DNA from: an uncultured Chitinophagaceae bacterium
GTDB taxonomy: Bacteria; Bacteroidota; Bacteroidia; Chitinophagales; LD1
Assembly: GCA_964650845.1 (NCBI GenBank)
Contig: CAZYXR010000005.1
Location: forward strand, 1 to 52,456
DNA length: 52,456 nt
Direction of reading: 5' to 3'
This document shows positions 17,794-32,936 of this stretch, in pieces. How positions within the stretch are numbered: position 1 is the first letter of the stretch; every line of letters begins with the position of its first letter. The position numbers and the translations under genes were made by a program. The notes under the pieces were generated by a model. That model had not been told where the DNA came from, did no database searches, and saw nothing but the letters and a program-made list of their open reading frames with translations.

Positions 17794-19008
17794 ATGCAAG
17801 CAACAGAACTTAAAGAGAACTTTGTAATAGTAAACGGGGTTAAAAAAAGCATTACCTATCAACGCTGCAACCGCTGTATTAGCGATAGCACATGCCCGGG
17901 AATTTCATTCAACAACAAAGGCATTTGCAACTTTTGCACATTACATGACAAATGGGTAAAAATGTACCCCAATGATGGGCGCGGGCAAAATATTCTAAAC
18001 AGCAGCTTAGAAAAAATAAAGCGCGATGGAAAAGGAAAAAAATACGATTGCATAGTTGGAATTAGTGGCGGCAGAGATAGCACCTACATACTACACTTAG
18101 TGGCAACAAAATACAAACTGCGCCCATTGGCTGTACACTTCAATGATGGGTTCGACAATCCCGTTGGTGGAGAAAACATGATAAACATCACCCGCAAACT
18201 GGGTGTGGAATTGCGCACAATCACGAGCGACTGGCGCGAAGCAAAAGATTTGAAAATTTCTTTTCTAAAAGCCTCGGTTCCAGAACTAAATGAAGGCACC
18301 GATGTAGGCATTGCTGCATCATGTTTTGGTGTAGCACACAAAGAAGGAGTTAAACATTTGATTTACGGACAATCGTTCCGCACCGAAGGCATTAAACCTA
18401 TGAGTTGGGCGTATATGGTTGGCGACTATTTGAATGATGTACAAAATAAATTTGGCTCAGTTAAGCTGCGCAAATGGACGGCAAACGACCCAAACTATCA
18501 TCTTGGATGGAAGGAACTGTTTTATTACAGTATGATTAAAGGTATTAAAGCCCACTCGCCACTTTATTACGAAAACTATGTACGAAAAGATGCCGAAGAA
18601 ATAATTAAACGCGAATATGATTGGGTTTATCCAGGGGCACATTATTACGATGATTTGTACTGGTCGTTGATTACCTATGTACATCGCGTTAAATTCAATA
18701 TTGATTTTCGCCTAAATGCTTACAGTGCTTTAATTCGCGATGGGCAAATGGATAGAGACTGGGCAATTGAATCGGTAAAAAAACCATACGTTATGGAAGA
18801 CCCCCGCATAATAGATTTGTGCTTGAAACGTTTGGCAATTTCTCGCGAGCAATTTGATGAATGGGTTGCCTTACCCCCCAAAACTTTCAGAGACTACAAC
18901 ACCGGATATACGGCAATGCAACTGATGCGACCTGCCATAAAAGCCGTTACTAAAATGGGTTTCATGCCCGAGATTGTTTACGACAAATATTTTCTCTGTG
19001 GCAAATAG
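17794..19008 (+). CDS. N-acetyl sugar amidotransferase (WbuX/WbpG/PseA-like PP-loop ATP pyrophosphatase)
   Basis: The N-terminal zinc-ribbon Cys pairs are CNRC...CPG...CNFC, followed by the PP-loop GISGGRDSTY. The length of ~400 aa is typical of this family. Confidence 0.75.
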   Translation: MQATELKENFVIVNGVKKSITYQRCNRCISDSTCPGISFNNKGICNFCTLHDKWVKMYPNDGRGQNILNSSLEKIKRDGKGKKYDCIVGISGGRDSTYILHLVATKYKLRPLAVHFNDGFDNPVGGENMINITRKLGVELRTITSDWREAKDLKISFLKASVPELNEGTDVGIAASCFGVAHKEGVKHLIYGQSFRTEGIKPMSWAYMVGDYLNDVQNKFGSVKLRKWTANDPNYHLGWKELFYYSMIKGIKAHSPLYYENYVRKDAEEIIKREYDWVYPGAHYYDDLYWSLITYVHRVKFNIDFRLNAYSALIRDGQMDRDWAIESVKKPYVMEDPRIIDLCLKRLAISREQFDEWVALPPKTFRDYNTGYTAMQLMRPAIKAVTKMGFMPEIVYDKYFLCGK

Positions 19009-20635
19009 CAATTACATTCTTGGAATAAACGGAGGAGTGCGCCCTGGCTATCAGGATATTTCTGCTGTATTGATGTGCAATGGAAAAGTGATTGCGGCTA
19101 TTGAAGAAGAAAGATTAAACAGAGTAAAACACACAGCAGGGCATCTGCCAATTCTTTCGGTTAAAGAGGTTTTAAATATTGGCAATATTAGCATTAAAGA
19201 TGTTGCCACAGTTGCATTTCATGGTAGCACTTGGCAGCAACATATTGACACTGTATTGCAAACTCACTTTACAAACTATTTTGGATTTTGCCCGCCAATA
19301 AAACGTTACCACCATCACGACTGTCATGCAGCAAGCACTTTTTTCGCATCAGGGTTTGCAGAAGCATTGATAATAACTGTAGATGGTTCGGGCGATGGAG
19401 TCAGCACACAAATAGCAATAGGACGGAACAATAAAATTGAGGTATTAGAAAGATACGAACGCCCACAAAGCTTAGGAATGTTCTATGCTATGCTCACGCA
19501 ACTTTGTGGTTTTACGCGCGATGCTGACGAATACAAATTGATGGGCTTGGCAGCGTATGGCGATGCAAAAAAATTCAATTTAGATGATGTACTGCGCATT
19601 AACGAAAACAGTTACTTTTTGCAAGAAGACTATATGGTAGAAATACCGCACGGTCAGCCCGCTCCCAGTAGAAACGAAATGCTTTTCAGCAACAAGCTCA
19701 CCACATTAACCGGCTTGAGTAAACGAACACAAAAAACCATTGAAGAACCATATAAACACCTTGCAGCCGCTACACAATTTCAATTAGAAAAGGCATTAAC
19801 ATCCTTAGTAAAAAAGTATGTGGCAAAAACCGGCATACGCAATGTTTGCATGGCTGGCGGGGTAGCATTAAACTGTTTGGCAAATCAAAAAATAGAAACC
19901 CTATCGGAAGTAGATTCTCTATTTGTGCAACCAGCTTCAAGCGATGCGGGAATATCTTTAGGCGCAGCATATTTGGCAAGTGTTGAAAGTGGTGTTACAG
20001 CGTTCGCAAAACAAACGCACACATTCTTTGGCAACCAGTTTACACAAACCGAAATTATAGATGCAATACAGCGTTGCCAATTGAACTATGAAATTGAAAA
20101 CAACATAGTTGAGGCTGCTGCCGATTTGCTTGCCAACAACAAAGTTATTGGCTGGTTTCAAAACAAAATGGAGTTTGGCCCTCGCGCATTGGGCAACCGA
20201 AGCATATTGGCGAATCCAACCACTGCCGACATTCAACATATAGTAAACCACAAGATAAAATTTCGCGAGGGGTTTCGTCCTTTTGGCGCAAGTGTTTTGG
20301 AAGAAGATTTTCATGAGTTTTTTGAAGCAAAATGCACCGATGCACCATACATGACAAAAGTGTTTTTTGTAAAAGAAAAATACAGAACATTGCTAAAGGG
20401 CGTTACACATGCCGATGGCACTTGCCGCGTGCAAACGGTAAATAAATTGCAGAATGAACTTTACTATAACCTACTGAAAGCATTGAAAACAAAAATAGGT
20501 TATGGTGTTTTGCTAAACACAAGTTTCAACCTAAGCCACGAACCAATTGTAAACACACCACGCGAAGCAATTGCAAGTTTTTTTGCCAGTGGAATGGATG
20601 CTTTGTTTATGGAAAATTGCTTACTAAAAAAGTAG
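18998..20635 (+). CDS. carbamoyltransferase (NodU/CmcH/TobZ family)
   Basis: ILGINGG...DISAVLM..GKVIAAIEEERLNRVKH at the N-terminus, plus GGVALNC and the C-terminal LLNTSFN, form the family signature. I prefer the GTG at 18998 over the TTG at 18974. It overlaps the upstream stop by 11 nt. Confidence 0.9.
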   Translation: MANSNYILGINGGVRPGYQDISAVLMCNGKVIAAIEEERLNRVKHTAGHLPILSVKEVLNIGNISIKDVATVAFHGSTWQQHIDTVLQTHFTNYFGFCPPIKRYHHHDCHAASTFFASGFAEALIITVDGSGDGVSTQIAIGRNNKIEVLERYERPQSLGMFYAMLTQLCGFTRDADEYKLMGLAAYGDAKKFNLDDVLRINENSYFLQEDYMVEIPHGQPAPSRNEMLFSNKLTTLTGLSKRTQKTIEEPYKHLAAATQFQLEKALTSLVKKYVAKTGIRNVCMAGGVALNCLANQKIETLSEVDSLFVQPASSDAGISLGAAYLASVESGVTAFAKQTHTFFGNQFTQTEIIDAIQRCQLNYEIENNIVEAAADLLANNKVIGWFQNKMEFGPRALGNRSILANPTTADIQHIVNHKIKFREGFRPFGASVLEEDFHEFFEAKCTDAPYMTKVFFVKEKYRTLLKGVTHADGTCRVQTVNKLQNELYYNLLKALKTKIGYGVLLNTSFNLSHEPIVNTPREAIASFFASGMDALFMENCLLKK

Positions 20636-20640
20636 AATCT

Positions 20641-21486
20641 ATGCCGTATAAAGACATATTTGTTGATACCGCACACAACATCGCGTTGGCGCAGCATGGC
20701 TATGTCATTGTACCATTTCTCACCAATACCGAAACACAGCAACTAACAAGTTTTTTTTACGAAAACCATCAAGAATTACCCGATGGAATGTATGCTTCAT
20801 CTCATGCTCGCGATTTTTCGTTTCGTAAAAAAATGAATGAAGAGATAAAGAGTGTTTGTGCAAGGGCAATGGAAAATACATTTCTAAATGCCACGCCTCT
20901 CGGCTCTACATTTATGGTAAAAAGCAAAGGCGAAAACGGCAGCCTTCACCCTCATCAAGACTGGAGTATTGTAGATGAAAAAAAGTTCAACTCCTATAAC
21001 ATTTGGCTTCCATTGGTAGATGTGAACGAGCAAAACGGAACGTTGCTTATTTTACCCAATAGCCACGAACTGTTTGATAACATTCGCGGCTTGAATATTC
21101 CATCATCGTTTGCACAAGTTGAAAAAGAAGTGTGGCAGTATTTAATACCAATAAACATGAAAGCCGGAGAAGCACTGGTGTATGACCATCGTTTGTTGCA
21201 CGCATCGGGCATAAACAAAACAACTCAACCGCGCTTGGTAGTGGTGTATGGAGTAATTCCTACCGAGGCAACCATGCGCTATTACTATGGCAAAGAAAAC
21301 ACCATAGAAGAGTATGAATGCACAGCCGATTTTTATTTCAACGAAACCATTACACAAGGTCCAACCGGATTAAAAATGCTGCAATCCATTGCCAACAACA
21401 ATCCCGTTGCAACACAAACTTTACTCAATAGCAAGTACGCAACATCAAAAACTTTACTGCAAACATTATTGTCATTTTTCAAATAA
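20641..21486 (+). CDS. phytanoyl-CoA dioxygenase (PhyH) family Fe(II)/2-oxoglutarate oxygenase
   Basis: The H-x-D facial triad sits in LHPHQDWS. WLPLVDVNEQNGTLLILPNSH and the distal His in LLHASG also fit. The ATG at 20641 lies 5 nt after the upstream stop. Confidence 0.8.
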   Translation: MPYKDIFVDTAHNIALAQHGYVIVPFLTNTETQQLTSFFYENHQELPDGMYASSHARDFSFRKKMNEEIKSVCARAMENTFLNATPLGSTFMVKSKGENGSLHPHQDWSIVDEKKFNSYNIWLPLVDVNEQNGTLLILPNSHELFDNIRGLNIPSSFAQVEKEVWQYLIPINMKAGEALVYDHRLLHASGINKTTQPRLVVVYGVIPTEATMRYYYGKENTIEEYECTADFYFNETITQGPTGLKMLQSIANNNPVATQTLLNSKYATSKTLLQTLLSFFK

Positions 21487-21522
21487 TTGAATCTACTAAG
21501 CGCTGATTTTTAAATTCGCAAA

Positions 21523-22452
21523 ATGCTTTATGCAATTCTTATCACAATTATAGTTTTTCAGTTTGCTGTGGTGGCGTGGTTGTTATTGAACAAAAAACAA
21601 ACATCCGTAAAAGCTTTTGCGGCTTCGAGCAATACACCACAATCGGTTTCAAAATTTTACAATCAAACCACCGATAAATTCATTGCAGTGTATGGCGAAA
21701 TTATTCAGGCATTTAGAACAAATGACGTAAGCGACTACCTTAACTACACAGTAGCGAGTATGCAATTAAAAAGTGGTATGACCGCCATTGATGCCGGCTG
21801 CGGAGTTTGCGGGCCGGCATGTCATTTTGCAACTACGGTAAGCGATGTAAAGATTAATGCAATTACCGTTTCGGAAGTGCAAGCCCAAAAAAGCAAAGAA
21901 AAAATCGTTGAAAGAAATCTGCAAAGCCAGGTAAATGTTAGTGTTGGCGACTATCACAAACTCGATGAAATTTTCGAAAAAGAATCAACCGACAGGGTTT
22001 ATTTTTTAGAATCTTTTGGCCACAGCAACGACAAGAAAAAAGTGATTAATACGGTTTATAATGTATTGAAGCCCGGGGGCAAAATGTACATCAAAGATTT
22101 GTTTTTGCGCGAAAGCGAAAACGAATGGGAGCAGCATCGCATCAATGCAATTGCCGAGCAAATAAACACAGCTTACGAATATCAAATTGCCGATTTGCAC
22201 GAGGTGGTTTCTGCAATAAGGCAAAAGGGATTTTTGGTTGAGTTTATTCGCCCGCCACAAGTAGAGCGCGATAAATTTGAACACCTCACCATCTCCAACG
22301 ACTTTCAAAATCTGTTCAACATCGGCAAAATTGAAAGTTGGGACGATTATGTTTTCCCTATTGACTTTTATGAAATTCTTGCAGAAAAACCCGTGTACAA
22401 TACTGCCGAGGATATGCACTTATACTTTATGAATAAAAAAAATCAATCGTAG
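21523..22452 (+). CDS. class I SAM-dependent methyltransferase with N-terminal TM helix
   Basis: Motif I is AIDAGCGVCGP, and the post-I acidic and motif IV region is LKPGGKMYIKD. The N-terminus YNQTTDKFIAVYGEIIQ resembles sterol/tocopherol-type C- or O-methyltransferases. Confidence 0.8.
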   Translation: MLYAILITIIVFQFAVVAWLLLNKKQTSVKAFAASSNTPQSVSKFYNQTTDKFIAVYGEIIQAFRTNDVSDYLNYTVASMQLKSGMTAIDAGCGVCGPACHFATTVSDVKINAITVSEVQAQKSKEKIVERNLQSQVNVSVGDYHKLDEIFEKESTDRVYFLESFGHSNDKKKVINTVYNVLKPGGKMYIKDLFLRESENEWEQHRINAIAEQINTAYEYQIADLHEVVSAIRQKGFLVEFIRPPQVERDKFEHLTISNDFQNLFNIGKIESWDDYVFPIDFYEILAEKPVYNTAEDMHLYFMNKKNQS

Positions 22453-22483
22453 AAACACTGTTGCTTTACTATCTAAAAATTAC

Positions 22484-23632
22484 GTGCAATTTCTCCACAA
22501 TCTTTCTGTTGTAACCCGCGCCAAAGACTGGCGATTAAGTTTCGTTCCATTTATAATGGGCTGCGTGTATATGTGGCTGTGGTGGTTTCAATTGCCTTGC
22601 ACAGCGCACACAATTTTATTAACCTTTCTTTCTTTAATTACCACCATCGGATTTGCCTCTCTAGGTTATTTCATCAACGAGTTTTTTGATAAAGCCAGCG
22701 ATGCAAAAGCTGGCAAATTAAACAAGCTGACATTTATTGCTCCGACACTACAGTTTGCAATTTTTGCATCATCGGTAGCACTTACTTTTTTACCATGGAT
22801 TTGGCTGCCGGCCTCAAAGTTTTCGTGGCTGCTGATTGGCGTGCAAATCTCGCTTTTCTTGATTTACTCTTTGCCCTTTCCGCGCCTAAAAGAATCAACT
22901 TACTTGTCGGTAATTATTGATGCGCTGTATGCGTATGTTGTGCCGTTGGCCTTATCGTTTTATACTTTTAGCTTAATTGCCAACACGCTCTATTTTCCGG
23001 CTTGGTTTTATCTTTTTGCAGTTGCAGTTTTTTTTATTGGCTTGCGCAACATCATTATTCATCAAGCTGATGACATAATGAAAGACAAACAAAGTGGAAT
23101 GAAAACTTTGCCGATGATTTTAGGCATTGCAAACACAAAGATTTTGTTGCAAACAGTTTTGTTATACGAAGTATTGTTCTCAACACTTTGGATGCTATTA
23201 TTAGGCGTTGAACGCTTCATATTTTTGCCATGCCTAATCGTCTATTTACTATTAGCGGTGTATTCTGCAAATGATGTAAACACAAGAGTTCACAACAAAA
23301 ACAGCCAATTCATCATCAATAACGCTTATCAATATCTCATTCCTCTTGTAATGATTTTATTGTTGACGATAAACGATGTAAAATGGCTGGCAATATTACC
23401 CTTGCATGTAATGCTTTTGGTGCCGTTTCATTTGTTGCAAAAAACGTTGAACATCATCAACAGTTTTATTTCTGTTATTCATCGTTTTGTATTGAACGAT
23501 GTGCGAAACTTCGTGAGCGCAGCAATAAATTATCCAATTTACTATTGCCTTTTAATGTTTGGTGTAGATTTAAAAAAAGAACAAATGTCTGCTTGGGAAT
23601 TTTTGCAGTCGCGCATTAAAAAAGGACAGTAA
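22484..23632 (+). CDS. UbiA-family prenyltransferase (polytopic membrane protein)
   Basis: The first Asp-rich motif is NEFFDKASDAKAG (NxxxDxxxD) and the second is IIHQADDIMKDKQSG. About 9 TM segments are present. The GTG start retains the conserved N-terminal TRAKDWRLSFVP. Confidence 0.8.
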   Translation: MQFLHNLSVVTRAKDWRLSFVPFIMGCVYMWLWWFQLPCTAHTILLTFLSLITTIGFASLGYFINEFFDKASDAKAGKLNKLTFIAPTLQFAIFASSVALTFLPWIWLPASKFSWLLIGVQISLFLIYSLPFPRLKESTYLSVIIDALYAYVVPLALSFYTFSLIANTLYFPAWFYLFAVAVFFIGLRNIIIHQADDIMKDKQSGMKTLPMILGIANTKILLQTVLLYEVLFSTLWMLLLGVERFIFLPCLIVYLLLAVYSANDVNTRVHNKNSQFIINNAYQYLIPLVMILLLTINDVKWLAILPLHVMLLVPFHLLQKTLNIINSFISVIHRFVLNDVRNFVSAAINYPIYYCLLMFGVDLKKEQMSAWEFLQSRIKKGQ

Positions 23633-23649
23633 AATTCAACAAAGAAGTT

Positions 23650-25419
23650 ATGTGTGGAATAGCAGGAATACTTGATTTTAAAAAGTGTGTTACCGAACAA
23701 GAAATCAGTAACATGACTAACGCTCTCAAGCATCGCGGCCCAGATGATGAGGGGCAGTATTTAAACGCATCTAAAACAGTGGGGCTTGGCCACAGGCGTT
23801 TATCGTTTTTAGATTTAAGCGAAAAGGGGCGACAGCCACTTACCAACGAAGACGAAACACTTTGGATAACTTTCAACGGAGAGATTTACAATTTCAGAGA
23901 TTTAAAAAAAGAACTGCAACAACTTGGGCATCAGTTTCAATCGGATACAGATAGTGAGGTTTTGATACACGCCTACGAACAGTGGCGCGAATCCATGTTG
24001 GATAAGCTGGAAGGAATGTGGGCTTTTGCCATTTGGGACGAAAAAACCAAAACGCTTTTTGCGGCTCGCGATCGTTTTGGCATCAAGCCATTCTATTACG
24101 GTGAGCAACAAGAACGCCTTGTTTTTGCATCTGAGATTAAAGCCATAAACGCGCTGCGGAATTACAAACTCACCATCAACAAATCTGCATTTGCCGATTA
24201 TTTTAATTACCGCTACATACCATCGCCCAACACCATTTGGAACGAAGTAAAAAAACTACCTCCGGCACATTATTTAACTTGGCAAAACGGCAATATTACC
24301 CTAAAAGAATATTGGCATCTCGAAAGCAAAAATAACACTACAAACCACCAACAATTAGTTGAAGAAATTGATGAGTTACTGTTTAACTCTGTAAAACTTC
24401 ATGCAGTAAGCGATGTGCCAATTGGAGCGTTTTTAAGTGGCGGTTACGACAGTTCTGCCATTGCGTATTATTTGCACCGCATGAATTATCCGCTTCAAAC
24501 ATTTTCTATCGGATTTGAAAAATGGGACAATAGCGAACATAAATTTGCCGAGTTAGTAGCACAATTGCTAAACAGCAAACATACTTCATACATTGTTGAC
24601 GATGCGCACTTGGAATTGTTAGAGCATTTAGCTTGGGTGTATGACGAGCCTATTGCCGATATTTCAACACTGCCAACATACATGGTGAGCAATGTGGCGG
24701 CAAAAGATGTAAAAGCAGTAATGAGTGGCGAGGGCAGCGATGAAATTTTTGTAGGCTACAACTGGCAAAGGCAGTTTGCCGAAAAAAGCTTTTTGCAAAA
24801 AATTAAACACCTTTTTTCGGGCAGCAGCAACCATTACATAGTGGATTATTATGCGCAGTCTATGGCAATGGGCCGATTCGACTTTAATGAACAACAAAAA
24901 CTGCTGCACCACGATTTGCATACATTCATAAACCCCGAAAGCGATTGGTTTTATTCAAAGCATTTTGATAAAAATTTAAGCCCATTAAAATCTATTCAAC
25001 TCATGGACATGAAATGTTTTATGGGCGAACTTGTACTTACAAAAGTGGATAGAGCAAGCATGGCAAACAGTTTAGAAGTGCGAGTTCCTTTTCTCGACCA
25101 TAAGCTGTTTGAAAAAGTATTTAGCTTACGCGAACAAGAATACCATCAACCACAACAAACAAAATCGTTGCTTTACGCTCAACTTAAAAATACTTTTCCG
25201 CAAGAAATTTTAAAACGAAAAAAACAAGGCTTTGTAGGCCCCGACCAGTTTTACACGAATATGGAATGGTATAAAACAGTGCTGAATAATGCTGAACTGG
25301 TAAAAGATGAATTGATAAACAAAACTGCAATAGATGAATACATTCGCACCAACCAAAACTGGAAGCTATGGAAGATTGCCGTTATGGAATTTTGGTATAA
25401 AAAATGGAAAATCCGGTAA
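23650..25419 (+). CDS. asnB: asparagine synthase (glutamine-hydrolysing) family amidotransferase
   Basis: MCGIAGILDF gives the N-terminal nucleophile Cys2. The PP-loop is GAFLSGGYDSSAI, and MSGEGSDEIFVGY is also present. This type is common as a uronamide-forming enzyme in glycan loci. Confidence 0.9.
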   Translation: MCGIAGILDFKKCVTEQEISNMTNALKHRGPDDEGQYLNASKTVGLGHRRLSFLDLSEKGRQPLTNEDETLWITFNGEIYNFRDLKKELQQLGHQFQSDTDSEVLIHAYEQWRESMLDKLEGMWAFAIWDEKTKTLFAARDRFGIKPFYYGEQQERLVFASEIKAINALRNYKLTINKSAFADYFNYRYIPSPNTIWNEVKKLPPAHYLTWQNGNITLKEYWHLESKNNTTNHQQLVEEIDELLFNSVKLHAVSDVPIGAFLSGGYDSSAIAYYLHRMNYPLQTFSIGFEKWDNSEHKFAELVAQLLNSKHTSYIVDDAHLELLEHLAWVYDEPIADISTLPTYMVSNVAAKDVKAVMSGEGSDEIFVGYNWQRQFAEKSFLQKIKHLFSGSSNHYIVDYYAQSMAMGRFDFNEQQKLLHHDLHTFINPESDWFYSKHFDKNLSPLKSIQLMDMKCFMGELVLTKVDRASMANSLEVRVPFLDHKLFEKVFSLREQEYHQPQQTKSLLYAQLKNTFPQEILKRKKQGFVGPDQFYTNMEWYKTVLNNAELVKDELINKTAIDEYIRTNQNWKLWKIAVMEFWYKKWKIR

Positions 25420-25449
25420 GATATATTTGTACATTTTTAAAGCCTTTGC

Positions 25450-26073
25450 ATGACGTTAATTTCTCTACTTGATTTTTTCAGATTTAATGTGCTGCATATT
25501 TCCACAAAATACATCAAATGGGAGCGGGAATACTTAGGCTTGGACGAAGAAACACCATTCAATTACCTAATAGGAATGGTAGCTAATGAAATCAGAAATT
25601 ATTGCTTTCGTTATGGCAAAGAAATATACTCGGGCGAAGGCGCATTAGTCGACTTGGGTTCATGGCTTGGCTCTACAGTGGTGCCGCTGGCAAAAGGGCT
25701 GCAAGAAAGCACAACAAACACAAATGCTATAATCCACGCATACGATACATTTGTTTGGTACGAGAATATGAGCAATAGTGCGCGCAATACGTCTATTGCA
25801 GGAAAGTACAAAATAGGCGATTGTTTTATTGAAGAATTCAAAAAACAGATTTCCCCCTTTGAAAAGTATGTAGAGATACATAAAGGCGACTTGAATAATG
25901 CGCAATGGGACGGAGCACCTATTGAATACATGATGATAGATGCTATGAAAGATTGGGTGCTGGCAAAAAAGATTCTTTTTACTTTTTACCCTCACCTTAT
26001 TGCCGGAAAAGCAATTATTATTCACGAAGACTTTTGCCATCATTACACTTCGTGGATACACTTATTTCACTAA
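25450..26073 (+). CDS. class I methyltransferase-like protein (Methyltransf_24/TylF-like), apparently truncated by an in-frame TAA
   Basis: LVDLGSWLGSTVVPLA (motif I-like), IHAYDTF and YMMIDAMKDW...AIIIHEDF fit the Rossmann methyltransferase order. The frame continues open past the TAA at 26071..26073 into the next ORF. Confidence 0.6.
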   Translation: MTLISLLDFFRFNVLHISTKYIKWEREYLGLDEETPFNYLIGMVANEIRNYCFRYGKEIYSGEGALVDLGSWLGSTVVPLAKGLQESTTNTNAIIHAYDTFVWYENMSNSARNTSIAGKYKIGDCFIEEFKKQISPFEKYVEIHKGDLNNAQWDGAPIEYMMIDAMKDWVLAKKILFTFYPHLIAGKAIIIHEDFCHHYTSWIHLFH

Positions 26074-26184
26074 AGGCTTCGTGATTATTTTGAACCGCTA
26101 CCCGTAATAAAACACTCTTCAGGAGTTGCTTTTAAGTGTATAAAACCACTCGAAAATTTATCTGCAATTATTCCTGACGATTTC

Positions 26185-26415
26185 ATGGACTTTACTGCTG
26201 ATGAAATAGAGTTAGCATTTGACTATTCGCTTTCGTTAGTAAGTGCAAGTAACCAACCTGCTATTCTTGCCGCAAAGGCAATGGCATACAGACACAAAAA
26301 CGATTATGAGACGGCAAAAAAAACACTTAATAAAATTCCTATCATAGTGCAATGGCTTAATACCGAGGTGTACGAAGTACACAGAACTCTCAAAAAAGAA
26401 CACACTCCAAAATAA
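26185..26415 (+). CDS. 76-aa ORF in the same frame as 25450..26073, probably the detached C-terminus of that gene
   Basis: (26185-25450) is divisible by 3, and the 37 codons between 26074 and 26184 contain no stop. Confidence 0.4.
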   Translation: MDFTADEIELAFDYSLSLVSASNQPAILAAKAMAYRHKNDYETAKKTLNKIPIIVQWLNTEVYEVHRTLKKEHTPK

Positions 26416-26522
26416 AAGCGTTTCGTATTGCCATAGTTACAAGCTATTATTGTGTTTAATTAATTAGTACTGTAATTAAAATATATGGCAGTTAGTTTCG
26501 TGCTGCTTTGCAAAGTTGAGCT

Positions 26523-27941
26523 ATGATTAAATCTTTGATAGATAAAATTTGGGGCAAAAAAAACAGCACCTTACAAACTTTTCCAATTCTATTTCACGAT
26601 TACAACAAATCGCGCTTGCCTGGCAAAAGCGAATACGCATGTTACGCTCCTATAAAAAACATTTACTTTGGTCATTATGGCAAAGCGGTAGCCTGTTGCT
26701 ACAACAGAGAACACGTATTGGGCACTTACCCACAACAAAGCATCCATGAGATTTGGACTGGTGAAAAAGCCCAAGAACTAAGAGCGGCATTAAAAAACTA
26801 TGATTTTTCGCATGGTTGCCGCTATTGTTTAACACAGATAAAAGCCGGCAATATTGATGCAGCTAAAGCCAAACAATATGATGAACAACACACCAATGCA
26901 AATGGTTATCCATCGGTAATGGAGTTTGAGTTGAGCAATACGTGCAACTTAGAATGTGTGATGTGTAGCGGAAATTTTTCTTCGCTCATTAGAAAAAACA
27001 GAGAAGGCAAACCGCCTGTGGAAAGCCCTTATGACGATGCATTTGTAGAGCAACTAAAGCCATACATTCCGTTTCTACAAGAAGTGAAGTTTTATGGAGG
27101 TGAACCCTTTATGATTCCAATATACTACAAGATATGGGAGTTAGCAGTACAACTCAACCCTACTATTTGCATTTCTATTCAAACCAATGCCACCATGCTA
27201 AACAGCCGTATCAAAGATTTACTCGAAGCCGGCAATTTTCACATAAACATTTCGCTTGATGCAGTAACAAGAGAAGTGTATGAAGCAATAAGATTAAACG
27301 CCAAATTTGATGCAGTAATGGAAAATGTAAATTGGTTTATTGATTACTGCAAACGCAAAAATACTTTTATTGGCATTTCTGCTTGTGCCATGCAGCAAAA
27401 CTGGAGGGACATTCCGAATATTCTCACTTTTTGTACTGAAAAGGAAGTGCAACTATACCTACACACGGTTTTTTTTCCAAAAGAGTGTGCCATAAGAAAC
27501 CTTAGCGCAATGGAGCTTACAGAAATATCTGAATTTACCAGTCCGTTTTTTACCACCATGGCTGTAAATTCTGCTATTGACAAAAAAAACAAATTGCATT
27601 TTGGCGATTACATTAAACAAGTGAACGATTGGAAGGCAGAATCAATAAAGCATGCAGAACAGATTATCATCAGTACCCCAACAGAACTTTCGGAATTTGT
27701 AAAACACAAGATGGAGCAAGTACTCTATCAATCACTTTTCGATGAGCAACGAAGAAAAAACATCCTCCAAAAATTAACTTTATTGATAAGCGTGATACCC
27801 AAAGATTTTCCATTTAAAGAAAGCTTAAAGGACTTCGACTTTAAAGACGACTACATGGTAATAGACATGCTCAAACACATAGAAAACAATACTATAGAAA
27901 CTTTGCTTAGCAACGCCCCACCAGCCAATACAGAATCATGA
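26523..27941 (+). CDS. radical SAM enzyme with an N-terminal SPASM/twitch-like Cys-rich segment
   Basis: The CX3CX2C motif is in SNTCNLECVMCSG. A GGEP motif follows at YGGEPFM. The N-terminus CYAP...GKAVACCYN...LGTY...IHEIWTG...GCRYC looks like a SPASM half-domain placed before the core. Confidence 0.8.
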   Translation: MIKSLIDKIWGKKNSTLQTFPILFHDYNKSRLPGKSEYACYAPIKNIYFGHYGKAVACCYNREHVLGTYPQQSIHEIWTGEKAQELRAALKNYDFSHGCRYCLTQIKAGNIDAAKAKQYDEQHTNANGYPSVMEFELSNTCNLECVMCSGNFSSLIRKNREGKPPVESPYDDAFVEQLKPYIPFLQEVKFYGGEPFMIPIYYKIWELAVQLNPTICISIQTNATMLNSRIKDLLEAGNFHINISLDAVTREVYEAIRLNAKFDAVMENVNWFIDYCKRKNTFIGISACAMQQNWRDIPNILTFCTEKEVQLYLHTVFFPKECAIRNLSAMELTEISEFTSPFFTTMAVNSAIDKKNKLHFGDYIKQVNDWKAESIKHAEQIIISTPTELSEFVKHKMEQVLYQSLFDEQRRKNILQKLTLLISVIPKDFPFKESLKDFDFKDDYMVIDMLKHIENNTIETLLSNAPPANTES

Positions 27942-29119
27942 CAAAGACCTTTGTTTTTATTGTTTGCGGAGCGGCAGAACATATTGATACGCTCCATTTT
28001 TCATTGAAGGCTTTGCGCAAATTTTCTCAAAGTGAAATTTTGGTACTTACAGATAGTTCGCGCAATGAAATCGCCATAGACCATAGTTATGTTATTGATG
28101 TAAAAACACCCGAGCATTTAGATCACCATCAAGCAAGCATTTACCTTAAAACCGGTGTGCACAAGTTTGTACCCAAAGGCAAAATGTATTGCTATATTGA
28201 TACCGATGTAGTGGCTGTTTCGCCCTTATGCGATGAGGTATTCGAGCAGCGTAACGGCATTATCAATTTTGCCCCAGACCATTGCCAAATGCGCAGTTTT
28301 AGCCCCTACTCGGTAAACTGCGGGTGCAAAGAAAAGTGGAATGTATGGCACAACGAACTCGAAGGACTGTTGGACAAGTATGATGTAAGCCGGCAAATAA
28401 AAGAGCCGACTCTAATAGAAAAACGCAAACAACTCTTTCGCAAGTTTGATATAATAAAGCAAAAGCCACTGCGTTACGCCATCATCAGTGCTCGCTTTTT
28501 GCTTAGTCCTGTGCGCTTCAAATTAGATAACGACACCTACTACCACAGATGGAAACGCCATTGGCATGATGCCGATGGAAATGTGATGCTTTATGCCAAC
28601 GAAAATCTTTTTAAGTTGGTAGAAAAACACTCGTATTTTGTATGGAATAAATTTAAGCGCAGGTGGTTTGCCGAAGGCAAATATGATGTGTACAACATGG
28701 AATGCAATCATTTGCAACAGCAAATCAAATCCACCTTTGGCATAGAAGTAAAAGATGCAAATTGGCAACATTGGAACGGGGGCGTTTTTTTGTTTGACGA
28801 TAACAGCCATCCATTTTTAGATGCCTGGCACCAAAAAACCATGCACATTTTCGCACTACCACAATGGAAAACCCGCGACCAAGGCACACTAATAGCTACT
28901 GCATGGGAGTTTGGAATGCAGCATGCGCCATTGCTTTCAAAAAAATACAATTTCATAGCAGATTATTACAAACACACCTTGATGCTGAATAAAGAAAAAA
29001 ACCTCATAACTGATGATGCCTTCAAAACAAGCTACGAGCCTGCATTAATGCACGTTTACCATCATTTCGGCATGAAAGGCTGGGATGTGTGGGATTGGGT
29101 TGAAACAAAAACTCAATAG
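27938..29119 (+). CDS. GT8-like nucleotide-diphospho-sugar transferase fold protein (tentative)
   Basis: FVFIVCGAAEH..., the DxD in YCYIDTDVVAV, WNGGVFLFD (compare the NAGV block), DQGTLIA and the C-terminal HHFGMKGW (compare HxxGxxKPW) follow GT8 motif order. A large insertion interrupts them. An ATGA overlap joins it to the radical SAM gene. Confidence 0.5.
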   Translation: MTKTFVFIVCGAAEHIDTLHFSLKALRKFSQSEILVLTDSSRNEIAIDHSYVIDVKTPEHLDHHQASIYLKTGVHKFVPKGKMYCYIDTDVVAVSPLCDEVFEQRNGIINFAPDHCQMRSFSPYSVNCGCKEKWNVWHNELEGLLDKYDVSRQIKEPTLIEKRKQLFRKFDIIKQKPLRYAIISARFLLSPVRFKLDNDTYYHRWKRHWHDADGNVMLYANENLFKLVEKHSYFVWNKFKRRWFAEGKYDVYNMECNHLQQQIKSTFGIEVKDANWQHWNGGVFLFDDNSHPFLDAWHQKTMHIFALPQWKTRDQGTLIATAWEFGMQHAPLLSKKYNFIADYYKHTLMLNKEKNLITDDAFKTSYEPALMHVYHHFGMKGWDVWDWVETKTQ

Positions 29120-29130
29120 CGTTTTCTACA

Positions 29131-30168
29131 CTACTCAACGGTTAATTGCTCGGAGTAGTTGTTTTCTTTCAAGCCTGATTTGCTTAACATGATAAATTTT
29201 GGATTATTAAAGAGCTTGTCTGCTACTATGCCAGCCAATAAAGCAGCACCTTTTGGTGTATGATGAACATCATCTTTCAAATGAAATGTATCAATAGGAA
29301 ACACCTGCATAGTTGTGGTATATGAAACATTGTTAGCCTCGCAAAGCTGCTGAGTGCAAGCATTAAATTTCTTCATTGCTCGAAACATTGACGCCCCATC
29401 AGGGTACGTTTTACCATTGTTGCATAATGCCCTGCCAAACCACAGCCTTTGCTCAACTGGCTCGGAATTGATAGGCTGATAAAAAGATGGTTGCTCTACA
29501 AAGAAACACAAAGAACTATCGCTTACAATACGACTTTGCAACTCGTTCATGTAAAAACGAAAAGCATCGAAAGAGCGAAACGCGTCATCAGAATAACTTG
29601 CAATCTGCATAGGATTAAATTGTTGCTGATATTTAAAATCTCCCAACCATTTTCTGATAAGAAAACGCTCCATTGAAGGAGGTTTAGTAGCATTGACGGC
29701 TGGTCCATAGTAGTGACTATACGTAGCTGCGTATTCACCATTTGAAAAATCTACCGGTGAAAATGATCGGCAAATGTCATTAATCGCGTGCATCACAATT
29801 ACAACATCAGGCTTAAATTTCCGATAATACGTAGTATAATTAATCAACGAATGTTTGGACGTGTACCAATCCATCCCTCCATTTAACACATAGATTCGTT
29901 TACCCCCAAACTTCTTTTCAAGAATTTTTTGCAGTTGCGAAGGGTACTTTTCTACCTCTTGTAATCTTCCATCGTTTGTAGTGGAACCACCAAGACAAAG
30001 AACAACTAAATCATCGTTTTGGATTTCGAGCGAATCGTATTTATTGAAACCAATTTGTACAAAAGGTTCAAAAGGGAAACCCTGACGATGATAATAATAA
30101 TACGATCCAGTTCCATAAAACAACAGCATCAAAAAACCAACTGAAAGGAAAACAGTAAAAACTTTCAT
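29131..30168 (-). CDS. membrane-anchored SGNH/GDSL-family hydrolase or acyltransferase
   Basis: The protein has an N-terminal TM helix. Block I is VLCLGGSTT (GGS variant), block II is LNGGM, block III is HAINDI and block V is DDVHHT. Confidence 0.65.
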   Translation of the reverse strand: MKVFTVFLSVGFLMLLFYGTGSYYYYHRQGFPFEPFVQIGFNKYDSLEIQNDDLVVLCLGGSTTNDGRLQEVEKYPSQLQKILEKKFGGKRIYVLNGGMDWYTSKHSLINYTTYYRKFKPDVVIVMHAINDICRSFSPVDFSNGEYAATYSHYYGPAVNATKPPSMERFLIRKWLGDFKYQQQFNPMQIASYSDDAFRSFDAFRFYMNELQSRIVSDSSLCFFVEQPSFYQPINSEPVEQRLWFGRALCNNGKTYPDGASMFRAMKKFNACTQQLCEANNVSYTTTMQVFPIDTFHLKDDVHHTPKGAALLAGIVADKLFNNPKFIMLSKSGLKENNYSEQLTVE

Positions 30169-31700
30169 AGCTGTTTTACAATATCGCGGTAAAAGAATAC
30201 AATTAGCATAATCATAGGAACTTGCAATGACTGAAGATAGCGAATTTGATCGAAGCTATGGGCAAAAGCAACCGTCAAAATACTTACGACTAAAAACATC
30301 AATAGCATAATAGAAACAGAGGAAAGTTTTCTAAAAACAAACAAACATATTCCTACAATAAAAATCAGTACAGAAATGAATTTACCAGCGTATAGAATAG
30401 GGATATAGATATACAAAAACAACAGGGGAATTGCAATTGTAATTGTACCCCCATGTGCATACCCAATTGTTTGCACTAACGAGTGAGACGAATAAGGAGG
30501 GGGGCTATCTATTGTATTCTGCAATTCTATTTCAAGAAAATAATCAAACATTCGCAACCGCATATCAACAACTGCAAAATAAATTTGCCATACTACTTTT
30601 TTCAAACACATAATTGGGTAGTTAAAGTAAATATGCTTTATCCAATTACTATAGTATGCCTTTACATCACCTTCCACAACTTCATCTGTTTCATTACTCT
30701 TTTTATCCCTAAAAAACTGCTGTATTACTTTGCCACAGTTTCCATATTGAAGTGCATCTAATGAATACCGCAACACAATAAAATTCGTATCTGGATTTGT
30801 TTCAATTTCTTCTACCAAAATCGGATACACAAGACTATTCAAACTGTCATCAGTGTTTGCCGCAAGGCTATTGTCTTTCATAGCTTGCAAAACAATATGA
30901 GCATGGCTGTAAAATACTTGACGAACAACGAAAGATTTAGAGGAGCCATCGTATCGCAAAGTCAAAAAAGTTTCGATTGATATTAATATCAATATTGGAA
31001 TCACCAACATGCACAACAACTTTTTCCATTCATTAGGAATGCGTTTAACTGCAAGAAAATAAGCAGCAATCAATACAAACAAAAAAGCGTAACTAAATCT
31101 TGTAAAAGCAACAAAACCAACACCTCCAATAATGGAAAGAGAGAGAAAATGTTTTGATGAAAATTTTTGACAAAACCGATAAAGTAGTACGAAAAAGCAC
31201 ACCGCGAATGGTGCAAAAACACCCTCGGGACGCAAGGTTTTTTCATACATAATAGTCATGCCATTGGCTACAAACAACAATGTAGAAACAGAAATAATAA
31301 GCACACTCGCTACCCTCTTATATTGTTGCCCTTCCGACCTCACTAACATTTTTTCAAACAACCACAACATACCAATAGCAGCAGCAATACCTCCAACATG
31401 GTGAACAATAACTACGGCATTAATGGTTTTAAAAACTAACAACAGTAATAAAACAAAAAGCGGGTAGGGAAAACTACGTGCAGAATGATGCGTAAAACTT
31501 CTCTCATTTAAAAAATCAATTGCAGGGAACAAATACCCACTGTAATCTGGATCTGCATGTAGTGTAATACCGTTTGAAAAGCGCAACCAAACTCCTATTA
31601 GAATAATAGCAGCATATAGAAAATAACGGGTGCGAATAACGAAACTGAACAAATTTGTAATCAAAAAATCATTGTGTGTTTTACAAAGTAAAGAAAACAT
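30165..31700 (-). CDS. polytopic membrane protein, GT-C/ArnT/PMT-like (tentative)
   Basis: The protein has ~12 predicted TM segments. An acidic first-loop motif HADPDYSGY is followed by a large soluble loop in the middle. An ATGA overlap (30165..30168) joins it to the downstream SGNH gene. Confidence 0.45.
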   Translation of the reverse strand: MFSLLCKTHNDFLITNLFSFVIRTRYFLYAAIILIGVWLRFSNGITLHADPDYSGYLFPAIDFLNERSFTHHSARSFPYPLFVLLLLLVFKTINAVVIVHHVGGIAAAIGMLWLFEKMLVRSEGQQYKRVASVLIISVSTLLFVANGMTIMYEKTLRPEGVFAPFAVCFFVLLYRFCQKFSSKHFLSLSIIGGVGFVAFTRFSYAFLFVLIAAYFLAVKRIPNEWKKLLCMLVIPILILISIETFLTLRYDGSSKSFVVRQVFYSHAHIVLQAMKDNSLAANTDDSLNSLVYPILVEEIETNPDTNFIVLRYSLDALQYGNCGKVIQQFFRDKKSNETDEVVEGDVKAYYSNWIKHIYFNYPIMCLKKVVWQIYFAVVDMRLRMFDYFLEIELQNTIDSPPPYSSHSLVQTIGYAHGGTITIAIPLLFLYIYIPILYAGKFISVLIFIVGICLFVFRKLSSVSIMLLMFLVVSILTVAFAHSFDQIRYLQSLQVPMIMLIVFFYRDIVKQL

Positions 31701-31772
31701 TTTCTTTGGTGCTTAATATACCAACCATTGTCCAAAACATATTCTCAACATAAAATTCATAACAGCACAACA

Positions 31773-32936
31773 ATGGTATTCCGCTTTTTACTCTCCATTG
31801 CTTGGCTTTTTGTGGCATTTTACTTTACATGGGAATACTATTGGTTTAGCAAAGTAAACTGGCATTTTGTAAGGTGGCATACTCATCTTGCACCGTTTGC
31901 ATTGGCAATATTATTGCTGCTTACCCTCACCCAGTTTGTGCAAATAAAAGAGCGCACCGTTTTACTTACAAGCTCTGTATGTATTGGCTTGGCGCTTGCC
32001 GAAGTACTGCTTTTTGCCAGGAACCCAAATGGCGATGTAATGTTTATCAGCCAACTCAAAACCAATCCTACAAACTACTATCATGCCTGGCCGGCAAACG
32101 CCACCCACTATCTAAAAAAAGAAGAATTTAACTACCAACGTCACACCAACTCTCTCGGATTTTCTGACAAAGAATGGCGCATCGAAAAAGATACAAGCAA
32201 AATTCGCGTACTCAGCTTAGGCGACTCCTTTACCGAGGGTGATGCTGCGCCTGCCGATTCAGCTTATCCATTTTTAATGCAAAAGATATTGGGCGAAAGT
32301 TACGAAGTAATGAATGCCGGCACTTGTGGTAGCGACCCTCTTTTCAACTACAAAAATCTTGAAGACCGATTGCTACAATATAAACCAGATATTGTAGTGC
32401 AAACAATTTCAACGAATGACTTATTGAATGACCTTCCGCTGCGAGGTGGCTTTGAACGTTTTCAACCGAATGATAAAATAAAAGAAAATTCGCCTCCGGC
32501 TTGGTTTTATCCTGCCATGATTAGTGTTGTTTTTAGAACGCTATTAACCACCTTCAACAATAACATAGGCAAGGCTCCAGTAATTGACAACACCTATCTC
32601 ACAAATCTCGAAACCATTCTACAACAACTCACTTTTAACTTCGACAACCTGGGCAAACAGCATGATATGAAAATTATATTTGTATTGCTGCCTTTGAAAA
32701 ATGAAGTGCAAAACAATAAATACGATTACAACTATTTGCCACTGCAGCAAATGGCAGCCCAATCAAACACCATTCGCACCCTTGATTTACTGCCATGCTA
32801 CGCGCAAAAAATTCACCTTAGCGGAAGCGATTTCAAAACATTTTATTGGCAGATTGACCAGCATCACAACTCTACCGGCTACAAACTAATGGCCGAGTGC
32901 ATAGCCGAAAAAGTATTGAGGATTACAGAACAATAA
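31773..32936 (+). CDS. membrane-anchored SGNH/GDSL-family hydrolase (paralog 1)
   Basis: The blocks are VLSLGDSFTEGD (I), NAGTCGSDP (II), STNDL (III) and DQHHNS (V). I prefer the ATG at 31773 (MVFRFLL, TM helix) over the TTG at 31728. Confidence 0.75.
   Translation: MVFRFLLSIAWLFVAFYFTWEYYWFSKVNWHFVRWHTHLAPFALAILLLLTLTQFVQIKERTVLLTSSVCIGLALAEVLLFARNPNGDVMFISQLKTNPTNYYHAWPANATHYLKKEEFNYQRHTNSLGFSDKEWRIEKDTSKIRVLSLGDSFTEGDAAPADSAYPFLMQKILGESYEVMNAGTCGSDPLFNYKNLEDRLLQYKPDIVVQTISTNDLLNDLPLRGGFERFQPNDKIKENSPPAWFYPAMISVVFRTLLTTFNNNIGKAPVIDNTYLTNLETILQQLTFNFDNLGKQHDMKIIFVLLPLKNEVQNNKYDYNYLPLQQMAAQSNTIRTLDLLPCYAQKIHLSGSDFKTFYWQIDQHHNSTGYKLMAECIAEKVLRITEQ

Follow-up and report, generated by a model that had tools for sequence, protein, structure and literature searches.

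On the forward strand of contig CAZYXR010000005.1, from the assembly GCA_964650845.1 of an uncultured Chitinophagaceae bacterium, positions 17794-29119 carry a compact operon of putative tailoring enzymes. We analysed the first 52,456 nucleotides of this contig (hereafter the window) and propose, with a rough probability of 0.45, that the operon belongs, in reduced form, to a conserved and modular cluster family that builds a membrane-associated, prenyl-linked glycoconjugate containing an N-acetyl-uronic sugar with acetamidino, carbamoyl and amide groups. The product is most likely a glycolipid or lipid-primed short glycan of the cell envelope. An original prediction made from the DNA letters had suggested a glycoconjugate that is decorated and carried by a prenyl or polyprenyl group, and at these odds it stays the best of the readings considered here.

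Conserved gene order is one basis of this proposal. By scanning one genome per Genome Taxonomy Database (GTDB) species with a profile of the operon's UbiA-superfamily prenyltransferase (UbiA), we obtained 26 loci (numbered with an L below), called their open reading frames (ORFs), compared the products with the window proteins and all against all, and annotated the unnamed families with Pfam. All 26 genome loci derive from uncultured metagenome-assembled genomes (MAGs); the labels are mostly Chitinophagales, Bacteroidetes or Bacteroidia, and Verrucomicrobia, Flavobacteriales and Chryseobacterium appear once each. The gene order beside the UbiA homologues recurs in these genomes at 40-88% amino-acid identity. 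The full order of N-acetyl-sugar amidotransferase (WbuX), carbamoyltransferase, PhyH dioxygenase, methyltransferase, UbiA, AsnB-type amidotransferase (AsnB), GT8-like glycosyltransferase and radical S-adenosylmethionine (SAM) enzyme is present in L002, and the same order lacking a single gene in L032 (AsnB) and L037 (PhyH). Two further loci, reached through the GT8-like family, share a core of UbiA, AsnB, epimerase and GT8-like genes: L033, with a UbiA 26% identical to that of the window, and L038, whose UbiA has 355 residues.

Counted over 27 loci, a class-I methyltransferase lies beside UbiA in 20, PhyH occurs in 18 (62 copies, at most 8 in one locus), AsnB also in 18, usually directly after UbiA, and the GT8-like gene in 16. 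The radical SAM enzyme with an N-terminal twitch domain is present in 12 (40 copies, at most 6 in one locus) and the carbamoyltransferase in 11. Less frequent are an ABC ATPase (10, with an ABC-2 permease in 5), SGNH proteins (8), WbuX (6), CN_hydrolase (5) and a second UbiA (3), while GT2, DegT, NAD-epimerase and a WelO5-like halogenase are found in 4 loci each. Judged by these counts, the invariant heart of the family appears to be UbiA, AsnB and the GT8-like protein, usually with the methyltransferase and with either an NAD-epimerase or a WbuX-carbamoyltransferase block, and a variable shell of enzymes predicted to functionalise C-H bonds seems to surround it. This core recurs in dozens of uncultured freshwater Bacteroidota. 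The Methyltransf_24-like gene (found in the nearest relatives only), the membrane protein Mem511, the first SGNH gene, TerC and CysNDC, all present in the window, are not conserved with the cluster.

The possibility that the operon is no single pathway, and instead a row of unrelated envelope and tailoring genes brought together by accident, could draw on one broken gene and on the lack of exporter and sugar-supply genes in the window. It is hardly credible: the order is shared among many distinct MAG lineages at the identities given above, and apart from one 107-nt spacer all junctions between the genes lie between -11 and +36 nt. The synteny already refutes a chance string. The genes look like a genuine, selected unit; a single transcript had originally been predicted from their packing. 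A cultured carrier was not found among the loci, none of which lies within a characterised O-antigen or capsule region, and our literature search on the enzyme combination and on N-terminal-twitch radical SAM enzymes retrieved no description of the cluster. With carriers that are uncultured MAGs and homologues that, where a source names them, bear generic names, the earlier statement that the combination matches no characterised pathway stands.

The operon consists of ten consecutive co-directional ORFs, as follows from its nine junctions, and of nine genes, one of them broken (Table 1); the eleven genes first reported were a miscount. Recomputed with a GTG start at 18998 for the carbamoyltransferase, whose longest ORF opens at a TTG codon at 18974, and an ATG start at 20641 for PhyH, the junctions are -11, +5, +36, +31, +17, +30, 0 (an in-frame TAA), +107 and -4 nt, and every value listed originally was reproduced. 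All nine family assignments were likewise recovered, the GT8-like one by structure and the others by Pfam and NCBIfam profile scans. Scanning the operon for sigma-70-type promoters and intrinsic terminators gave nothing above shuffled expectation, and an Rfam scan detected a single tRNA far downstream, which leaves the operon with neither a regulatory RNA nor a clear internal terminator. In the 30-nt spacer between AsnB and the Methyltransf_24-like gene lies a TAnnTTTG motif, which we take to be the -7 promoter consensus of Bacteroidota and which may be an internal promoter. None occurs within the 79 nt upstream of WbuX.

The anchor of the family is a divergent UbiA. It matches PF01040 at 45.6 bits (cut-off 34.2), and the family alignment holds the invariant motifs N65-E-x-x-D69-x-x-x-D73 and H193-Q-x-x-D197-x-x-x-D201; a C-terminal extension of about 90 residues is present. 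The AlphaFold model (mean predicted local distance difference test score, pLDDT, 91.7) is an all-helical membrane protein of UbiA fold. Foldseek placed AfUbiA first (4tq4, TM-score 0.71), then ApUbiA and the archaeal DGGGP synthase (DGGGPS), with Rv3806c and UBIAD1 lower; the Rv3806c structure 8j8j ranked 14th (E 1.8e-3, 12% identity). The best NCBIfam matches, all weak, are also to DGGGPS-type models. Sequence searches reached less far. A single-sequence search of the PDB returned noise only, and a 26-sequence profile found only chlorophyll synthase among solved structures (E 0.012), with no match to Rv3806c (8j8j/8j8k) at E<=10. Source names of the roughly 200 relatives are mostly 'UbiA family prenyltransferase' from Chitinophagales MAGs, and an exact-match lookup of the window protein returned one 4.6-kb Logan contig with the same genes and no added context.

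These searches bear on an alternative in which an O-antigen- or capsule-like polymer is assembled by genes elsewhere and decorated by the operon. In that case UbiA would charge polyprenyl phosphate with a sugar, as Rv3806c or the Citrobacter PPPRS do, a GT-C enzyme (Mem511 in the window, PMT_2 proteins in relatives) would transfer the sugar in the periplasm, and the remaining enzymes would modify the polymer. A UbiA-family polyprenyl-phosphate phosphoribosyltransferase (PPPRS), a flippase and a GT-C form an established and widespread three-component system (PMC11127046). PMT_2-type GT-C genes occur in L002 and L033, ABC-2 exporters and a bifunctional glycosyltransferase are encoded in relatives, and Mem511 has a GT-C-like topology with an invariant acidic motif after its first transmembrane helix. 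True PPPRS enzymes are, however, about 31% identical to Rv3806c and accompanied by a flippase and a GT-C (PMC11127046), whereas here the profile misses Rv3806c, Foldseek puts 8j8j below AfUbiA, ApUbiA and DGGGPS, Mem511 is not conserved with the cluster, and we found no MATE/SMR flippase, HAD/PAP2 phosphatase or DprE-type epimerase in the window or the examined loci. Since the identity to Rv3806c does not hold and no MATE or SMR flippase was found, we would not file the window UbiA as a PPPRS, and we regard a polymer-decoration module as quite unlikely.

The core glycosyltransferase of the cluster family is the 393-aa GT8-like protein encoded last in the operon. It has no Pfam, NCBIfam or PDB sequence match, and a match to PF01501, the profile named for it in the original prediction, was not obtained. 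Its AlphaFold model (pLDDT 93) retrieved the UGGT catalytic domain, glycogenin, LARGE1, WbbM, GlyE and the GT8 protein 3tzt from the PDB with Foldseek (E 3e-5 to 6e-4), in alignments of only about 135-145 columns and with TM-scores of about 0.3 to the target. On this model, the name GT8-like probably holds for the nucleotide-sugar half of the protein, and the remainder appears to be an unmatched elaboration. More than 1100 homologues exist; all source-named ones are called 'hypothetical protein', and two carry a precomputed PF01501 match. An alignment of 31 of them keeps D88-x-D90 and H372 invariant. Many relatives encode a protein of about 665 aa whose N-terminal half is GT8-like and whose C-terminal half is a second glycosyltransferase domain (Gly_transf_sug/Caps_synth).

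That the operon lacks a recognisable scaffold synthase, as had been claimed, is therefore overstated, the GT8-like protein being a conserved core glycosyltransferase. What does stand is the accompanying list of missing gene classes: Pfam and NCBIfam scans of every large window ORF found no phosphoglycosyltransferase, Wzx/Wzy/Wzz, ABC exporter, nucleotide-sugar gene, polyketide or non-ribosomal peptide synthase or terpene cyclase, nor HisH/HisF or a sulfotransferase. Searching the window by tblastn with the relatives' sulfotransferase, ABC-2 permease and ATPase, epimerase, GT8, PMT_2, GT9, CN_hydrolase and GT2 likewise gave no cluster-linked match. Relatives do carry classical glycan genes, namely those for an ABC-2 permease with its ATPase, GT2, DegT, a Wzx-like flippase, NAD-epimerase, NTP-transferase and PMT_2/TPR proteins, which brings the family closer to polysaccharide logic than the reduced window suggests. 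Beyond the core, L033 encodes a sulfotransferase (Sulfotransfer_3 at 33.1 bits, cut-off 27), an exporter of ABC-2 type, a GT8 protein and a PMT_2+TPR protein of 1035 aa. In L038 the additions are a P450-domain protein of 714 aa, an SDR, an NTP-transferase and a Wzx-like protein, and in L035 a GT9. The window has no classical O-antigen or capsule locus and is a stripped-down member that must rely on genes elsewhere for sugar supply and export.

Three enzymes of the operon are predicted to modify the sugar. WbuX matches TIGR03573 over model positions 3-343 of 344 (220.8 bits, cut-off 203.2), with a GISGGRDST PP-loop (SGGRDS) and CNRC...CNFC cysteine pairs in the N-terminal zinc-ribbon region. 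Its family membership would imply an N-acetylated amino sugar as substrate. The protein is 82-88% identical to its orthologues in L002, L005, L006, L014, L019 and L029. In the same loci UbiA (42-55%) and the GT8-like protein (about 50%) are far more diverged. The high WbuX identity points to strong constraint or to a recent spread of the WbuX-carbamoyltransferase block. The 11-nt overlap between these two genes recurs in the gene calls for L002.

The carbamoyltransferase scores above the gathering thresholds of Carbam_trans_N (PF02543, 146.8 bits, E 1e-42) and Carbam_trans_C (PF16861, 219.4 bits, E 3e-65), and matches the TobZ, GdmN and NovN structures at about E 1e-73 (TobZ at E 8e-74 over residues 7-539). 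It reaches 115 bits against the NodU equivalog NF041651, for which the cut-off is 1000, and is best described by its matches as a TobZ-like family member rather than a NodU orthologue. AsnB exceeds the TIGR01536 cut-off (514.6 bits against 267.1), opens with MCGIAG including the Cys2 nucleophile and holds an SGGYDS PP-loop; with the WbpS-type model TIGR03108 (eps_aminotran_1) it scores 507.8 bits, under the cut-off of 816.9. The AsnB-type enzyme WbpS (PGN_1234) was shown genetically to make the uronamide of the T9SS (type IX secretion system) linking sugar in P. gingivalis (PMC7468200). By its scores the window AsnB appears to be a close paralogue of the WbpS family lying below that family's cut-off, and by analogy it likely converts a carboxylate to a carboxamide.

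WbuX-type enzymes had been expected to be paired with HisH/HisF, for which none of the large window ORFs gave a match by Pfam or NCBIfam, in agreement with the original observation. In six related loci a CN_hydrolase gene lies directly upstream of WbuX (Table 1), and in these relatives it, and not AsnB as had been suggested there, appears to take the place of HisH/HisF. Such a pairing is analogous to the glutaminase domain of the glutamine-dependent NAD synthetase (NadE). Since tblastn with the relatives' gene found no CN_hydrolase in the window, the ammonia for the WbuX encoded here may be free or come from a partner that is not linked to it.

The remaining enzymes of the operon would, by family, transfer methyl groups or act on C-H bonds. 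The methyltransferase has one transmembrane helix at residues 4-22, and its closest PDB match is 3BUS (E 1e-16), which ranks ahead of cyclopropane synthases. We take 3BUS to be RebM, a sugar 4'-O-methyltransferase. With 3BUS as best solved relative, a role as lipid C-methyltransferase, suggested by the CMAS match in Pfam, is weakened. PhyH matches PF05721 (E 5e-21), possesses the HxD...H triad, has MysH and SnoN as closest solved relatives and weakly matches TIGR04324, the 'sporadic carbohydrate cluster' oxygenase model. The radical SAM enzyme combines PF04055 and PF13186 matches (SPASM at residues 40-102) with a CxxxCxxC motif, C-N-L-E-C-V-M-C, and its 159.9 bits against the N-terminal-twitch model NF033640 fall just under the cut-off of 170. 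Its PDB matches are weak (GDGT-MAS and MoaA for the core, a BtrN-like twitch at the N terminus), and Pfam detected no B12-binding domain in it.

In relatives the last two of these enzymes are multiplied. PhyH tandem arrays of up to 8 copies are seen in L016/L030, L025 and L026, and radical SAM arrays of 5-6 copies in L013 and L019/L032, which suggests iterative or combinatorial C-H functionalisation. A WelO5-like carrier-independent halogenase (L025), a P450 (L038) and a sulfotransferase (L033) have no counterparts in the window.

Such arrays could also be expected if the clusters matured a ribosomally synthesised and post-translationally modified peptide (RiPP), with radical SAM/SPASM enzymes, an AsnB-like cyclase, hydroxylases and a methyltransferase modifying a peptide that UbiA prenylates. 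Multiple radical SAM/SPASM and PhyH paralogues together with Asp_Arg_Hydrox and Cupin_8 genes in L002, and a sub-threshold match of AsnB to a lasso cyclase model, fit such a scheme. On the other side, AsnB scores as a full glutamine-dependent amidotransferase, the transporters are of ABC-2 and not peptidase-ABC type, and WbuX, GT8-like, DegT, epimerase and GT2 genes point to sugars. No conserved small ORF family emerged when ORFs of at least 100 aa were clustered, those below 70 aa not having been searched systematically. The only small paralogues seen are two basic 81-aa proteins, 38% identical to each other, that bracket the cluster in the metagenomic locus L037; the window and the other loci lack them. 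We rejected peptide maturation because a conserved small ORF was not found, and consider it very improbable.

The seventh gene is interrupted by an in-frame stop. Homologues of about 319 aa span the stop without gaps and cover 99% of the joined 25450-26415 sequence, so the two ORFs are pieces of one gene. The TAA codon (26071-26073) replaces a conserved Tyr, which is Tyr or Trp/Phe in every homologue, within the motif HLIH-Y-RLRDYF, and is either a single-base nonsense change, which would make the gene a recent pseudogene, or a sequencing error. The Methyltransf_24 match is weak (E 0.006), with PF13578 precomputed on several homologues, and the gene accompanies the cluster in nearest relatives such as L035 and L036, outside the wider conserved core.

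From the chemistry of these families and from synteny we infer how a prenyl-linked, decorated sugar would be made. UbiA would take an isoprenoid diphosphate from the general pool and link it, on the inner membrane face, to a small polar acceptor, yielding a lipid anchor. To this anchor the soluble, GT-A-fold GT8-like enzyme would add a sugar of N-acetyl-hexosaminuronic type, with a nucleotide sugar supplied by another part of the genome as donor. AsnB would convert the C6 carboxylate to a carboxamide in the manner of WbpS, WbuX the N-acetyl to an acetamidino group, and the TobZ-like enzyme would carbamoylate a hydroxyl, while the membrane-tethered methyltransferase would methylate either the isoprenoid or a hydroxyl of the sugar. 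C-H chemistry, that is hydroxylation and an epimerisation, oxidation or methylation, would fall to PhyH and the twitch radical SAM enzyme. Relatives would export the product by the ABC-2 transporter that they encode and the window lacks, and membrane-anchored SGNH proteins would afterwards add or remove O-acyl groups outside the cytoplasm; for this last stage the presence or absence of the genes is observed, and the roles are those expected of their families. In relatives, differences in the product between lineages would come from their arrays of PhyH, radical SAM, P450 and halogenase genes.

Two further observations agree with a prenyl-linked glycoconjugate. Among the cluster proteins only the methyltransferase, UbiA and the SGNH proteins have transmembrane segments, and the ATP-, SAM- and 2-oxoglutarate-dependent enzymes have none, a pattern that fits a sugar being assembled and decorated on a membrane anchor at the cytoplasmic face, with O-acyl handling afterwards on the other side. 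The closest solved relatives of the tailoring enzymes (TobZ/GdmN/NovN, 3BUS and SnoN/MysH) act on small-molecule sugars. Families, motifs, folds and gene order are observations, whereas substrates and the order of steps would follow from them by analogy.

Several points weigh against this proposal. The UbiA family is remote from every solved UbiA enzyme, and its acceptor cannot be read from the sequence; the substrates of all the other enzymes, too, are those suggested by family. As exporter, nucleotide-sugar enzyme and flippase are absent from the window, the pathway is either locally incomplete or reliant on distant genes, and one operon gene is broken. WbuX and the carbamoyltransferase, present in only 6 and 11 of 27 loci, would be optional decorations and not core functions. 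The P450, the WelO5-like halogenase and the PhyH arrays of relatives could mean that the isoprenoid is the main tailoring substrate. Finally, all carriers are MAGs, and the product chemistry is deduced from genes alone.

Immediately downstream of the operon, the first of three SGNH proteins (PF13472, E 4e-10, one N-terminal transmembrane helix) has no orthologue in the related loci and is a probable accessory for extracytoplasmic O-acyl handling. Of the two that follow, both with weak matches to the LA_2486-type SGNH family and both of a family that recurs with the cluster, the first has homologues in 8 loci plus L030, L032, L033 and L035, and the second in L019, L020, L023, L029 and L032. Mem511 matched nothing by Pfam, by NCBIfam, by a 30-sequence profile against the PDB or by a Pfam scan of 30 relatives. 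The protein has about 10 hydrophobic segments; its family numbers about 280 representative sequences in a whole-library phmmer search and keeps D52, G55, Y56 and P59 invariant after the first transmembrane helix in the motif LDxDxxGYLxPAL, which resembles GT-C enzymes; on topology and motif we guess that it may be GT-C-like. Its membership of the system is doubtful because it is not conserved with the cluster.

Sulfate decoration, once thought possible, finds no backing: the window has no sulfotransferase, homologues of CysN, CysD or CysC occur in none of the related loci, and these genes are best seen as neighbours whose link to the operon is unproven. A genuine sulfotransferase exists in one relative (L033). 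On the upstream side, a TerC/YkoY-family gene directly precedes the operon, where Rfam found no yybP-ykoY riboswitch, and is itself preceded by T9SS cargo genes for an S8 peptidase, an N-glycanase-like protein and, just upstream, a 1917-aa SprB-repeat protein. A large T9SS cargo gene (1904 aa) also flanks the cluster in L033. This adjacency may be coincidental or tied to a surface-anchoring glycolipid. A resistance-nodulation-division (RND) efflux system with a TetR regulator lies some 9 kb downstream, with no evidence of a link to the operon.

Table 1. Positions of the operon genes, their neighbours and selected genes of related loci.
Feature	Locus	Coordinates	Strand	Basis
WbuX/WbpG/PseA-type N-acetyl-sugar amidotransferase	window	17794..19008	+	TIGR03573, PP-loop, Cys pairs
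NodU/CmcH/TobZ-type O-carbamoyltransferase	window	18998..20635	+	PF02543, PF16861
PhyH-family Fe(II)/2-oxoglutarate dioxygenase, hydroxylase type	window	20641..21486	+	PF05721, HxD...H triad
Class I SAM methyltransferase, one N-terminal transmembrane helix	window	21523..22452	+	CMAS, Methyltransf_11/25/31
Divergent UbiA-superfamily intramembrane prenyltransferase, cluster-family anchor gene	window	22484..23632	+	PF01040
Glutamine-hydrolysing AsnB-type amidotransferase	window	23650..25419	+	TIGR01536
TAnnTTTG motif	window	25422-25429
Methyltransf_24-like gene, broken	window	25450..26415 (pieces 25450-26073, 26074-26415)	+	Methyltransf_24 (weak)
Radical SAM enzyme, N-terminal twitch/SPASM-like Cys-rich domain	window	26523..27941	+	PF04055, PF13186
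GT8-like glycosyltransferase (GT-A fold, DxD), 393 aa	window	27938..29119	+	structure model, Foldseek
Membrane-anchored SGNH/GDSL protein	window	29131..30168	-	PF13472
Mem511, 511-aa polytopic membrane protein, unnamed family	window	30165..31700	-	no family match
SGNH/GDSL protein, three N-terminal transmembrane helices	window	31728..32936	+	PF13472, PF00657
Second SGNH/GDSL-like membrane protein of recurring family	window	33072..34310	+	PF13472, ALGX (both weak)
CysN, CysD, CysC (sulfate activation to PAPS)	window	34307..37230	-	Pfam matches
T9SS cargo genes	window	5436-15969	-
TerC/YkoY-family gene	window	16935-17714	+
RND efflux system (AcrB-like, HlyD-like, OEP) and TetR regulator	window	38340-45240	-
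CN_hydrolase upstream of WbuX	L006	2577-3401
CN_hydrolase upstream of WbuX	L014	4621-5454
CN_hydrolase upstream of WbuX	L019	4507-5340
CN_hydrolase upstream of WbuX	L029	4487-5329
CN_hydrolase upstream of WbuX	L032	4546-5373
CN_hydrolase upstream of WbuX	L037	860-1684
WelO5-like halogenase	L025	13062-13937
P450	L038	3990-6134
Sulfotransferase	L033	1407-2282
Large T9SS cargo gene	L033	16636-21188
Paralogous 81-aa basic proteins	L037	485-730, 14112-14357

If the proposal is correct, the clusters represent a new and widespread logic in which UbiA rather than a phosphoglycosyltransferase is central to glycoconjugate assembly, in a host group of abundant uncultured freshwater and activated-sludge Bacteroidota. 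It would give functions to three large families whose annotation is only generic so far, namely to the divergent UbiA clade, to the GT8-like family of more than 1100 members and to the arrayed N-terminal-twitch radical SAM enzymes, and the NadE-like pairing of CN_hydrolase with WbuX would be an alternative to HisH/HisF for acetamidino-sugar formation. A bolder version, which we hold only tentatively, is that the family makes a previously undescribed class of UbiA-initiated, isoprenoid-anchored glycolipids with an acetamidino-carbamoyl uronamide head, their lipid and sugar being varied by lineage through the arrays of PhyH, twitch radical SAM, P450 and halogenase enzymes. They would serve as a Gram-negative counterpart of moenomycin-type phosphoglycolipids or as a new kind of anchor in the envelope, to which surface proteins, for instance, could be attached. 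A moenomycin-like product could supply new chemistry directed at peptidoglycan glycosyltransferases, and an envelope anchor would bear on Bacteroidota surface decoration. The absence of a cultured carrier limits immediate testability. A categorically new mechanism is not forced by the data; we see here a variant of glycolipid or lipid-linked glycoconjugate biosynthesis that is uncharacterised and so far confined to uncultured Chitinophagales-like bacteria.

Among known systems, Nod-factor and saxitoxin tailoring, with which parallels were first drawn, have only generic tailoring families in common with the operon; the chemistry of moenomycin unit F and of WbpS/WbpG is closer. For moenomycin (Streptomyces moe cluster), the roles of MoeO5, MoeN5 and MoeH5 have been described (PMC13096315). 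Our comparison with this pathway is one of the roles of the Moe proteins, and the resemblance concerns tailoring logic only. Roles are reportedly also established for MoeE5, MoeF5, MoeM5 and MoeK5, of which the last three are said to tailor moenomycin's first uronic-acid sugar. Shared are prenyl transfer to a small polar acceptor, glycosylation with a uronic acid, AsnB amidation to a uronamide, NodU/CmcH-type O-carbamoylation and radical SAM chemistry on the same sugar, and a UDP-sugar epimerase is present in L030, L033 and L038. The differences are that UbiA replaces the TIM-barrel MoeO5 and MoeN5, that the glycosyltransferase is GT8-like, that the radical SAM enzyme is of N-terminal-twitch type, and that WbuX, PhyH arrays and SGNH proteins are added in Gram-negative Bacteroidota producers. 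Neither a PcrB/GGGPS-type nor a B12-binding domain was detected by Pfam or NCBIfam in any window ORF or in the examined loci.

The overlap in repertoire raises the question of whether the product is instead a secreted specialised metabolite, such as a moenomycin-like phosphoglycolipid or a meroterpenoid glycoside, with UbiA in the role of MoeO5/MoeN5 and AsnB, carbamoyltransferase and radical SAM enzyme in those of MoeF5, MoeM5 and MoeK5. The nearest solved relatives of the methyltransferase, PhyH and carbamoyltransferase are indeed natural-product tailoring enzymes, and gene content is highly modular between lineages, with P450 and halogenase genes in some. Against it, the scaffold enzymes of moenomycin are non-homologous to those found here, and resistance or regulator genes are not evident. 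The spread across many Chitinophagales-like MAGs, often with ABC-2, Wzx-like, PMT_2/TPR or GT9 genes, is more envelope-glycan-like. We therefore consider secretion of such a metabolite unlikely, although this alternative, polymer decoration and the envelope glycoconjugate that we prefer are not fully exclusive.

An envelope glycoconjugate has its closest sugar chemistry in the WbpS/WbpG systems (P. aeruginosa Wbp; P. gingivalis PGN_1234), in which an AsnB paralogue makes the uronamide of an N-acetylated uronic sugar (PMC7468200) and a WbuX/WbpG-family enzyme (TIGR03573) is the acetamidino amidotransferase; P. gingivalis is also a member of the Bacteroidota. The window differs in lacking WbpA/B/E/D, WbaP/WecA, Wzx/Wzy and HisH/HisF and in an AsnB below the TIGR03108 cut-off, and the present cluster is organised around a UbiA that WbpS/WbpG loci do not have. 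The three-component pentofuranose systems (Rv3806c DPPRS and Citrobacter ORF15 PPPRS) do place a UbiA-superfamily enzyme inside a glycan locus (PMC11127046), and share with some relatives a PMT_2-type GT-C and with others nearby ABC-2 exporters. Here, in contrast, sequence kinship to DPPRS is undetectable, the structural match is lower-ranked, and flippase, phosphatase and DprE-type epimerase are missing. In fold, the window UbiA is nearest to the archaeal-type enzymes AfUbiA, ApUbiA and DGGGP synthase, which give the best structural matches (TM-score 0.6-0.76 to the target) and share both Asp-rich motifs. Identity to them is 14-18%, the first motif reads NExxDxxxD where the canonical form is NDxxDxxxD, and the C-terminal extension sets the window protein apart; no GGGPS partner is present, and this UbiA stands in a context of sugar tailoring.

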